This document shows positions 38,493 through 39,528 of a stretch of DNA of 64,000 nt, one piece after another. Below the pieces are notes generated by a model that worked only from the letters and a program-made list of their open reading frames with translations, did no database searches and was not told the origin of the DNA. The position numbers and the translations under genes are program-made. The stretch's first letter is position 1, and the number at the start of each line of letters is the position of its first letter. The DNA is from Escherichia phage JS10, in the sequence record EU863409; one strand, written 5' to 3'.

Positions 38493-38786
38493 TTATTTTG
38501 TAATTTCTTTGATTTTAGAAACTACTTTATCTTTGGTAAGACCGGAAAAAGTCTTATATTTTGTAAAGTGGATATCATCACCAAGATTAATATAATATTT
38601 CTTTTTAACCGTATTGAATGCTATACTAACAGGTTTACCATTTACTGTAATAGTAATTTGCTGAGCCTTATCAACATCACCTGAGCCAAAGGCTCTTTTA
38701 ATATCGCTACTAATATCGGCCATAGCCGCTTTGTTAATGGAATACAAATCTGTCGATTCTTTGATAAATTCTTGATAAGTTTTCAT
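38493..38786 (-). CDS. internal-protein-like capsid-targeted protein
   Basis: N-terminus MKTYQEFIKE; 97 aa; downstream of canonical PeSL-like cassette. Confidence 0.6.
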   Translation of the reverse strand: MKTYQEFIKESTDLYSINKAAMADISSDIKRAFGSGDVDKAQQITITVNGKPVSIAFNTVKKKYYINLGDDIHFTKYKTFSGLTKDKVVSKIKEITK

Positions 38787-38855
38787 TTTTTTGTTTCCGT
38801 TAGGTTGGGTTTGTTTTGATAGGTCTATAGTATCATGCCTATAGACCTTGTAAAC
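38787..38855 (-). promoter_or_regulatory. PeSL-like promoter-stem-loop cassette
   Basis: -35 GTTTAC (38850-38855), 17-bp spacer, -10 TACTAT; perfect 10-bp stem 38821-38830 / 38839-38848. Confidence 0.6.
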
Positions 38856-38866
38856 ATCTTTTTAAA

Positions 38867-39076
38867 TTATTTTAGCCATGAAGAATTTTCAGAGACCCAG
38901 CTATCTATATCCGATTGAGGACCAAAGAAGTAGGCAACCCCATTAGATAACTCTCCCGAAAGCCAATTTATACCTTTCAGGCTTTCTTTAAATTCTTCAG
39001 GAGTACAAGAAACCTCTATTGCCACCGAAGAGGCCGACTCCATTGCTTCTGTTAAAAATTCTTTGTATGATTTCAC
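38867..39076 (-). CDS. internal-protein-like capsid-targeted protein (ipI position)
   Basis: N-terminus [10 protein letters not shown]; 69 aa; ATGA overlap with 57B stop. Confidence 0.55.
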
Positions 39077-39528
39077 TTTAAATCCTCGGCCCAGTCGAGC
39101 TTCAAGGGTTCTTTATATTCTCTATCTAAAACGACAGGAATCTGGACATCTCCACTAAAGGTAAGAGGTCCTACATTATAAGACAATGTGATATGAGGGG
39201 TATAATCATCGAAATCGTGCGTAGCACCTAAGGTACGAGCATACTGATGGCGGCATTTAAGATACTCTGAATCGAGAACCAGTACCAAGACGGGAGAATC
39301 ACCATGTTTCCACACTTCAAGATGTCCTGTCGAAGCAACTTCAAAACTTCCGGATGCAACGGTGTATGGAACGTTGACTCTTGAATAGCAGATTGTAGAA
39401 TGGAATTTTTCACGAGGAACCGGATTAGGAACCTTTAAAGTGCGCTGAAGATTTTCCAGCGCATCTAAAGTCAATTCAGAGAATTTTGCAGCAACGTATA
39501 GACCTTGAGCAAAATCTTCGGTTTTCAT
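39073..39528 (-). CDS. 57B: 57B-position 2H-phosphoesterase (Acb1-like candidate)
   Basis: 151 aa with two H-x-T-x motifs (HSTICY, HITLSY) typical of 2H phosphoesterases; sits at the T4 57B locus. Confidence 0.6.

Follow-up and report, generated by a model that had tools for sequence, protein, structure and literature searches.

The region between positions 38,493 and 39,528 of the window, by which is meant the whole 64,000-nucleotide stretch of DNA analysed here, is, with a probability of about 0.85, the ipI/57B locus of a JS98-type T-even phage, in which gene 57B encodes the anti-CBASS enzyme Acb1 and two small genes, here called ip69 and ip97, encode internal proteins at a variable slot bracketed by PeSL cassettes. 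The locus as such is already known: it is the ipI/57B region of the textbooks, here in a phage lineage that has been sequenced before, and the exchange of ip genes by way of cassettes has long been described. The two small ORFs that an earlier note had pointed out beside the 57B-position gene both exist, on the minus strand, and together with their neighbours they are listed in Table 1.

The window phage is, by its sequence, a JS98-like T-even phage of the genus Dhakavirus (Tevenvirinae), and the 3.6 kb around the locus shares, from end to end, 97.6-97.8% identity with Escherichia phages MN04 and JS98. The minus strand carries all genes of the ip/57B region, and their order is that of T4, namely gene 3, gene 1, 57A, 57B, the variable slot, trna.4, trna.3, trna.2, one ORF and three tRNA genes; the synteny 1, 57A, 57B, ip, trna.4 is identical between the window and T4. 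The only RNAs found by Rfam in 36000-40600 were three tRNAs. Plus-strand ORFs over the locus (e.g., 39486..39815) were rejected as low-complexity shadows of minus-strand genes with strong homology. As a side observation, the 3' end of 57A (39529..39579) contains a 15-nt tandem repeat that adds Y-S-D/E-E-E units to the acidic C-terminal tail of gp57A, with two extra units in the window, one in WG01 and none in JS98, so that the proteins measure 86, 81 and 76 aa, respectively.

Table 1. Features of the ipI/57B locus and of the second canonical ip locus in the window.
Feature	Coordinates	Strand	Evidence or remark
Gene 1 (dNMP kinase)	40542..39781	-	
Gene 57A, tail-fibre chaperone, conserved flank directly upstream of acb1	39528..39788	-	Pfam GP57, E 2.1e-28
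acb1 (gene 57B), 151 aa, anti-CBASS 2H phosphodiesterase	39073..39528	-	Pfam, PDB, T4 alignment, UniRef
ip69, 69-aa internal-protein-like gene	38867..39076	-	CTS; GTG start over acb1 stop
CTS of ip69, codons 1-10	39047..39076	-	L-T-E cleavage motif
PeSL-type cassette 1, TTTACA-16 nt-TACTAT (38854..38827) around a 10-bp stem-loop	38810..38872	-	Stem-loop z -4.56
ip97, 97-aa internal-protein-like gene, in the slot of T4 ipI	38493..38786	-	CTS MKTYQEFIKE
CTS of ip97, codons 1-10	38757..38786	-	I-K-E cleavage motif
PeSL-type cassette 2, TTTACA-17 nt-TACTAT (38489..38461) with a stem-loop	38444..38506	-	Stem-loop z -2.75
trna.4 homologue, 65-aa membrane protein, conserved slot flank	38239..38436	-	JS98 annotation; phrog_1692
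IPIII homologue, 198 aa, MKTYKEFITE..., closely similar to T4 IPIII over its whole length	26800..27396	-	Second canonical ip locus
IPII-position protein, 99 aa, MKTYQEFITE...	25545..25844	-	Second canonical ip locus

The assignment of the 57B protein to the Acb1-type 2H phosphodiesterase family, as the earlier note had proposed, was borne out by several comparisons. The Pfam family PF23474 (Acb1) matched it with 197.8 bits against a cut-off of 27 (E 8.8e-59), residues 8-149 spanning positions 1-144 of the 144-position profile, and the Acb1 structures of Erwinia phage FBB1 (PDB 7T26/7T27) matched with an E value of 4.2e-59. The protein is 85% identical to T4 gp57B (NP_049750.1), and UniRef already lists a 100% identical protein, that of phage CLB_P2, as 'Anti-CBASS protein Acb1'. 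T4 gp57B was purified by Hobbs et al. in 2022 as a 3'3'-cGAMP-degrading activity and named Acb1, a metal-independent enzyme with a two-step mechanism that uses the HxT/HxT tetrad H44, T46, H113 and T115, with Y12, W74, F107 and W147 as stacking residues and E141 reading the adenine; T4 without acb1 was also compared with the wild type on CBASS hosts (PMC9117128). The two H-x-T-x motifs that had first drawn attention to the window protein are exactly the two H-x-[ST]-x motifs that it contains, H43-S-T45-I and H112-I-T114-L, and in the alignment with the characterised T4 enzyme, a comparison that the earlier note had suggested, H43, T45, H112 and T114 fall on the four catalytic residues. The refuting condition set in the earlier note, motifs away from the catalytic positions, therefore did not hold. 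In all, nine functional residues of T4 Acb1 are invariant in the window with a shift of one position (Y11, H43, T45, W73, F106, H112, T114, E140 and W146). The alignments identify the window 57B protein as Acb1, a near-identical orthologue of the characterised enzyme.

The mechanism shown for the T4 and FBB1 enzymes would therefore carry over to the window protein, given the 85% identity and the conservation of every functional residue. Acb1 would be synthesised within the infected cell, where its aromatic pocket would hold the cyclic di- and trinucleotides of CBASS and the HxT/HxT tetrad would cut the 3'-5' bond 3' of adenosine by acid-base catalysis, so that the signal would be linearised before the CBASS effector could be switched on. 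A competing description, in which the 57B protein is an RNA ligase or an RNA-repair 2H enzyme and not a cyclic-oligonucleotide phosphodiesterase, has its source in the product name 'RNA ligase' in RefSeq and in the same label on phrog_755, and LigT-type enzymes do belong to the 2H superfamily. This description is hardly credible: the label is older than the biochemistry that recovered T4 gp57B by its activity on 3'3'-cGAMP, the residues that contact the substrate are all conserved in the window protein, and Pfam places the protein in Acb1 specifically. The name 'RNA ligase' in RefSeq and PHROGs is a holdover from 2H-superfamily naming.

The N-terminal tail of Acb1 (first eight codons, 39505..39528; positions 5388-5411 of the record extract in T4) lies outside the crystallised fold, the PDB chain beginning at the G-L-Y-V motif. 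In many T-even phages this tail reads M-x-F-K-D/E-F-S, e.g., MMEFKDFST in T4 and MNNFKEFST in Cronus, and it resembles the capsid-targeting sequence (CTS) MKTFKEFTS of T4 IPI, but without an L/I-x-E cleavage site. The window tail MKTEDFAQ is a poorer fit, and the motif is mostly absent from distant Acb1 homologues.

Both small proteins are of the capsid-targeted type, as had been claimed. The first ten residues of ip97 share nine of ten positions with MKTYQEFIAE of T4 IPII and IPIII, and ip69 also opens with a CTS-type decapeptide, which starts MKSYK... in the window; the corresponding N-terminus of T4 IPI is MKTFKEFTST. Y4, F7, I/L8 and E10 are present in both proteins, with cleavage motifs at I8-K-E10 in ip97 and L8-T-E10 in ip69, and the two CTS-coding stretches form a direct repeat (D3) of 76% identical DNA. 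In the T4 system, the first ten residues of IPIII suffice for packaging foreign proteins, targeting depends on CTS positions 4 and 7 and cleavage on positions 8 and 10 (PMC9026906), and the gp21 protease cuts after L/I-x-E (PMC3012670; PMC9026906). A six-frame scan of all 64 kb with the CTS pattern returned four ORFs only, namely ip69, ip97 and the two ORFs at 25545..25844 and 26800..27396, all of them at ip loci, and the signal is therefore specific and far beyond chance. The canonical ip loci are here taken as the intervals from 57B to trna.4 and from e to denV, and ip69 and ip97 both lie in the former.

Following this signal, ip69 and ip97 are predicted to be packaged, cleaved and injected. 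With their first ten residues the proteins would dock to the scaffolding core within the prohead, cleavage behind Glu10 by the head protease gp21 would follow (L-T-E|A in ip69 and I-K-E|S in ip97), and the mature proteins, of 59 aa and acidic for ip69 (pI 4.1, net charge -6) and of 87 aa and basic for ip97 (pI 9.6, net charge +5.5), would stay in the head and enter the host with the DNA. Genes 21 (protease) and 22 (scaffold core) lie beyond the window end, and both are encoded by the 97.6% identical JS98. No virion proteome for JS98-type phages was found in the literature.

Cassettes and promoters separate the two ip genes. PeSLs, i.e., promoter-early stem-loop mobile regulatory cassettes, are known from T4-type phages (Arbiol et al. 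2010; Comeau et al. 2014; PMC2839356, PMC4122927), with a published PST/T4-type promoter consensus of TTTACW-N17-TAYWAT (PMC4122927). The two cassettes of Table 1 are the copies of a 63-nt direct repeat (D1) with 73% identity; in both of them TACTAT is preceded by TG, and both stem-loops fold better than shuffled controls. Matches to TTTACW-N16-18-TAYWAT number 13 in the window, all on the minus strand (7030..38854), against 0.8 expected. In several of these 13 PeSL-type promoters the -10 region is the ...ATGATACTAT that also occurs at the ip slot. Cassette 1 stands before ip97, and cassette 2 stands after ip97 and before trna.4, as in T4, where the layout is 57B, cassette, ipI, cassette, trna.4, with invariant hexamers and stems that differ by paired changes; cassette 1 is therefore predicted to drive ip97, and cassette 2 to drive trna.4 and to form the right boundary of the slot.

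Unlike ip97, ip69 is set directly on the end of acb1: its GTG start lies seven bases behind a GAGGA Shine-Dalgarno sequence and overlaps the stop codon of acb1 (GTGA). A sigma-70 scan gave no promoter of its own for ip69, no MotA-box pattern was found for it, and no perfect late promoter (TATAAATA) lies nearer on the minus strand than 42518-42525, upstream of gene 4, with a one-mismatch late-promoter box TATAAAGA within acb1 at 39110-39117. Because ip69 has no cassette and shows this overlap behind a Shine-Dalgarno sequence, it most likely shares the acb1 transcript and is coupled to acb1 in translation, and read-through from the late promoter at 42518-42525 is a plausible late source of acb1 and ip69 mRNA. 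In the divergent intergenic region of gene 4 and gene 53 (42503..42525), perfect late-promoter boxes stand back-to-back on opposite strands.

This arrangement corrects the earlier note in part. The note was right in substance but erred in the promoter assignment, in the direction relative to 57B and in the 'immediate' expression of the whole block: a cassette promoter of its own holds for ip97 and fails for ip69, since the second cassette precedes trna.4, and the ip genes are 'directly upstream' of 57B in plus-strand coordinates only, being transcriptionally downstream of it. One co-regulated block expressed at once is not what the locus presents, as ip69 is coupled to acb1 and ip97 has a separate early cassette; moreover, expression of T4 57B/acb1 has been reported as predominantly middle/late (bioRxiv 10.64898/2026.03.30.715471), which argues against immediate expression of Acb1. 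The immediate action of internal proteins follows from their being pre-made and injected, not from early transcription.

The two ip genes also differ in distribution. ip69 was found in 27 phage records, and the 19 in which it is 97-99% identical are all JS98-type. In EcS1 (Kagamiyamavirus), Gravdalen (Winklervirus) and Merlin (Moonvirus) it comes next after acb1 and overlaps it by 4 nt, and in Citrobacter phage CF1 one further ip gene stands between acb1 and ip69; of the five genera examined, four thus have ip69 immediately behind acb1, and all five have it within the slot. The CTS is kept in every ip69 homologue found, down to 53% overall identity. Among 5.8 billion proteins ip69 forms five 90% clusters, and a profile search of 1.8 billion representatives returned only 5 proteins at E up to 1e-10. 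When its model was compared with viral models by Foldseek, the next match after the Merlin homologue was Ip6 of VR7 (E 1.1e-3, TM 0.71/0.64), the VR7 structure in this comparison being a BFVD model. ip69 starts with GTG and MKSYK... in the window and JS98, and with ATG and MKTYS... in IME281 or MKTYN... in WG01 (window 39065..39076, against 2769-2780 and 2713-2724 of the two extracts); all differences of the IME281 and WG01 proteins from that of the window fall in CTS residues 3-5, and the other 64 residues are identical. This pattern suggests a recombination junction or a relaxed constraint within the targeting peptide.

By comparison, ip97 is rarer: at high identity it is confined to JS98, MN04 and a single metagenomic cluster, and it forms one 90% cluster among 5.8 billion proteins, with relatives of 33-38% identity in Edwardsiella phages PEi20 and PEi26 and Enterobacter phage CC31. 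The PEi20 relative (37.5%) keeps the CTS and sits at the e/denV ip locus (2001-2288 of the extract), and Yersinia phage MHG19 has a 31% relative near motA that lacks a CTS (1953-2249 of the extract). The mature ip97 module thus appears to occur in injected and non-injected versions at different loci, and on the MHG19 relative the ip97 domain is therefore not strictly in need of packaging. The predicted ip97 model has a low confidence (pLDDT 59.5) and is too uncertain to use.

The slot between 57B and trna.4 varies widely among relatives, holding one gene in T4 (ipI), two in the window, JS98 and MN04, three in IME281, four in WG01 and five in VR7, and the slot genes across these phages, all of which were read except for the neighbours of T4 ipI, all have CTS-like N-termini. 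As the ip97 slot is bracketed by two homologous PeSL cassettes, recombination between the cassettes would let genes enter and leave the slot, and this would account for the one to five different ip genes in relatives; for the two copies in the window, such recombination is deduced from the polymorphism among relatives. ip69 would lie outside the cassette-bracketed slot, fused to the acb1 stop, and it is probably for this reason that it was not removed by cassette recombination and has been kept beside acb1 in four genera. The adjacency of ip genes and 57B is ancestral; T4 has ipI beside 57B, and the arrangement is that of a hyperplastic cassette slot bordering on core genes.

As to what ip69 and ip97 do, neither matched Pfam, NCBIfam or PADLOC, and in PHROGs they matched only families without names, plus a weak 'internal head protein' match driven by the N-terminus. 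No relative of known function was detected for them in Pfam, NCBIfam, PADLOC or PDB, and neither sequence nor fold searches gave a PDB match that would relate them to IPI*. PDB sequence matches were dismissed as chance (antibody heavy chains for ip69; E of at least 0.15 for ip97). In T4, Ip1, Ip2 and Ip3 each inhibit a distinct GmrSD type IV restriction enzyme, with no cross-protection and no mutual homology, and they are non-essential (PMC12373910). By analogy with these three, our best guess is that ip69 and ip97 most likely each disarm one particular host nuclease directed at modified phage DNA.

Three other readings of the ip proteins were weighed against this one. They might be packaged and yet serve as structural or DNA-charge-neutralising components of the head, with no part in counter-defence; the basic charge of mature ip97, which resembles that of mature T4 IPI and of the IPII-like protein of the window, would suit such a role, but the net charge of mature ip69 is the opposite, the T4 Ips all have specific GmrSD targets and are dispensable (PMC12373910), and a slot content that varies among close relatives fits arms-race cargo better than a structural need, so that we hold this role to be unlikely. 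Somewhat more doubtful still is the proposal that ip69, ip97 or both are not packaged at all, their CTS-like N-termini being relics of recombination and the proteins acting as newly made cytoplasmic proteins. The repeat D3 could be maintained by recombination and not by function, the MHG19 relative of ip97 does without a CTS and ip97 has an early promoter, all of which would agree with that proposal; CTS residues 4, 7, 8 and 10 are nevertheless kept in every ip69 homologue while neighbouring positions vary, the ten-residue CTS of IPIII is enough to package foreign proteins (PMC9026906), and five of the five VR7 slot genes have CTS-like N-termini.

A more specific idea makes ip69 a dedicated, injected first-wave partner of Acb1. 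In the minutes during which no Acb1 has yet been made, it would weaken CBASS, or some other defence that signals by nucleotides or targets DNA, for instance by mimicking DNA or a nucleotide. The acidity of ip69, its coupling to the acb1 stop and its retention beside acb1 in at least four genera while other cassettes turn over were considered for this idea, together with the linked notion that the eight-residue Acb1 tail (M-x-F-K-D/E-F, like MKTFKEF of the T4 IPI CTS) could target some Acb1 into the capsid; we regard it as a very long shot. Inhibition of one specific host nuclease by each of the two putatively injected proteins stays the favoured reading.

For annotation, ip69 and ip97 are two real genes missing from the JS98 reference annotation, and 57B is mislabelled 'RNA ligase' in RefSeq records. 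In that annotation nothing is marked from trna.4 to 57B (NC_010105 72191-72838; 3926-4573 of the extract), yet both ip ORFs are present there, and their products share 100% and 98.6% identity with those of the window. Phage-therapy work makes use of JS98-type (Dhakavirus) phages, and these have, as judged from sequence, a fully intact acb1 and no fewer than four capsid-targeted proteins. As putative cargo of a delivery system from which the three T4 proteins tested have all proved to be specific anti-restriction proteins, the uncharacterised ip69 and ip97 are reasonable candidates for screens against the defence systems of wild E. coli; beyond annotation, the significance is small.

Compared with known systems, the cassettes agree with published PeSLs in their hexamers, which fit the consensus, in the embedded stem-loop, in the variable small genes that they flank and in their many copies on one strand, with no difference of note. 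The window Acb1 shares with the T4 and FBB1 enzymes the genome position between 57A and the ip slot, nearly the length (151 vs 152 aa), the HxT/HxT tetrad, the four base-stacking aromatics, the adenine-reading Glu and the C-terminal lid, and it differs from T4 Acb1 in the eight-residue N-terminal tail, MKTEDFAQ in place of MMEFKDFST. Ip6, a T6-type internal protein with a copy in vB_EcoM_VR7, has the CTS, a G-P-x-x-x-I-x-x-W motif and the locus in common with ip69, although the identity is only 22% and the pairwise E value of 2e-4 leans partly on the CTS. Ip4-Ip10 were reportedly named by Repoila et al. in 1994. With T4 Ip1 (IPI*), Ip2 and Ip3, the window proteins share the CTS decapeptide with its L/I-x-E site, the small size and the ip locus (PMC12373910; PMC3012670), and ip97 stands at the exact position of ipI, between the corresponding two promoter cassettes. 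They differ from the T4 internal proteins in having no sequence similarity to them past residue 10, and mature ip69 is acidic, whereas mature IPI is basic. Since Ip1-3 are themselves mutually unrelated, the function of ip69 and ip97 may still be analogous to theirs.
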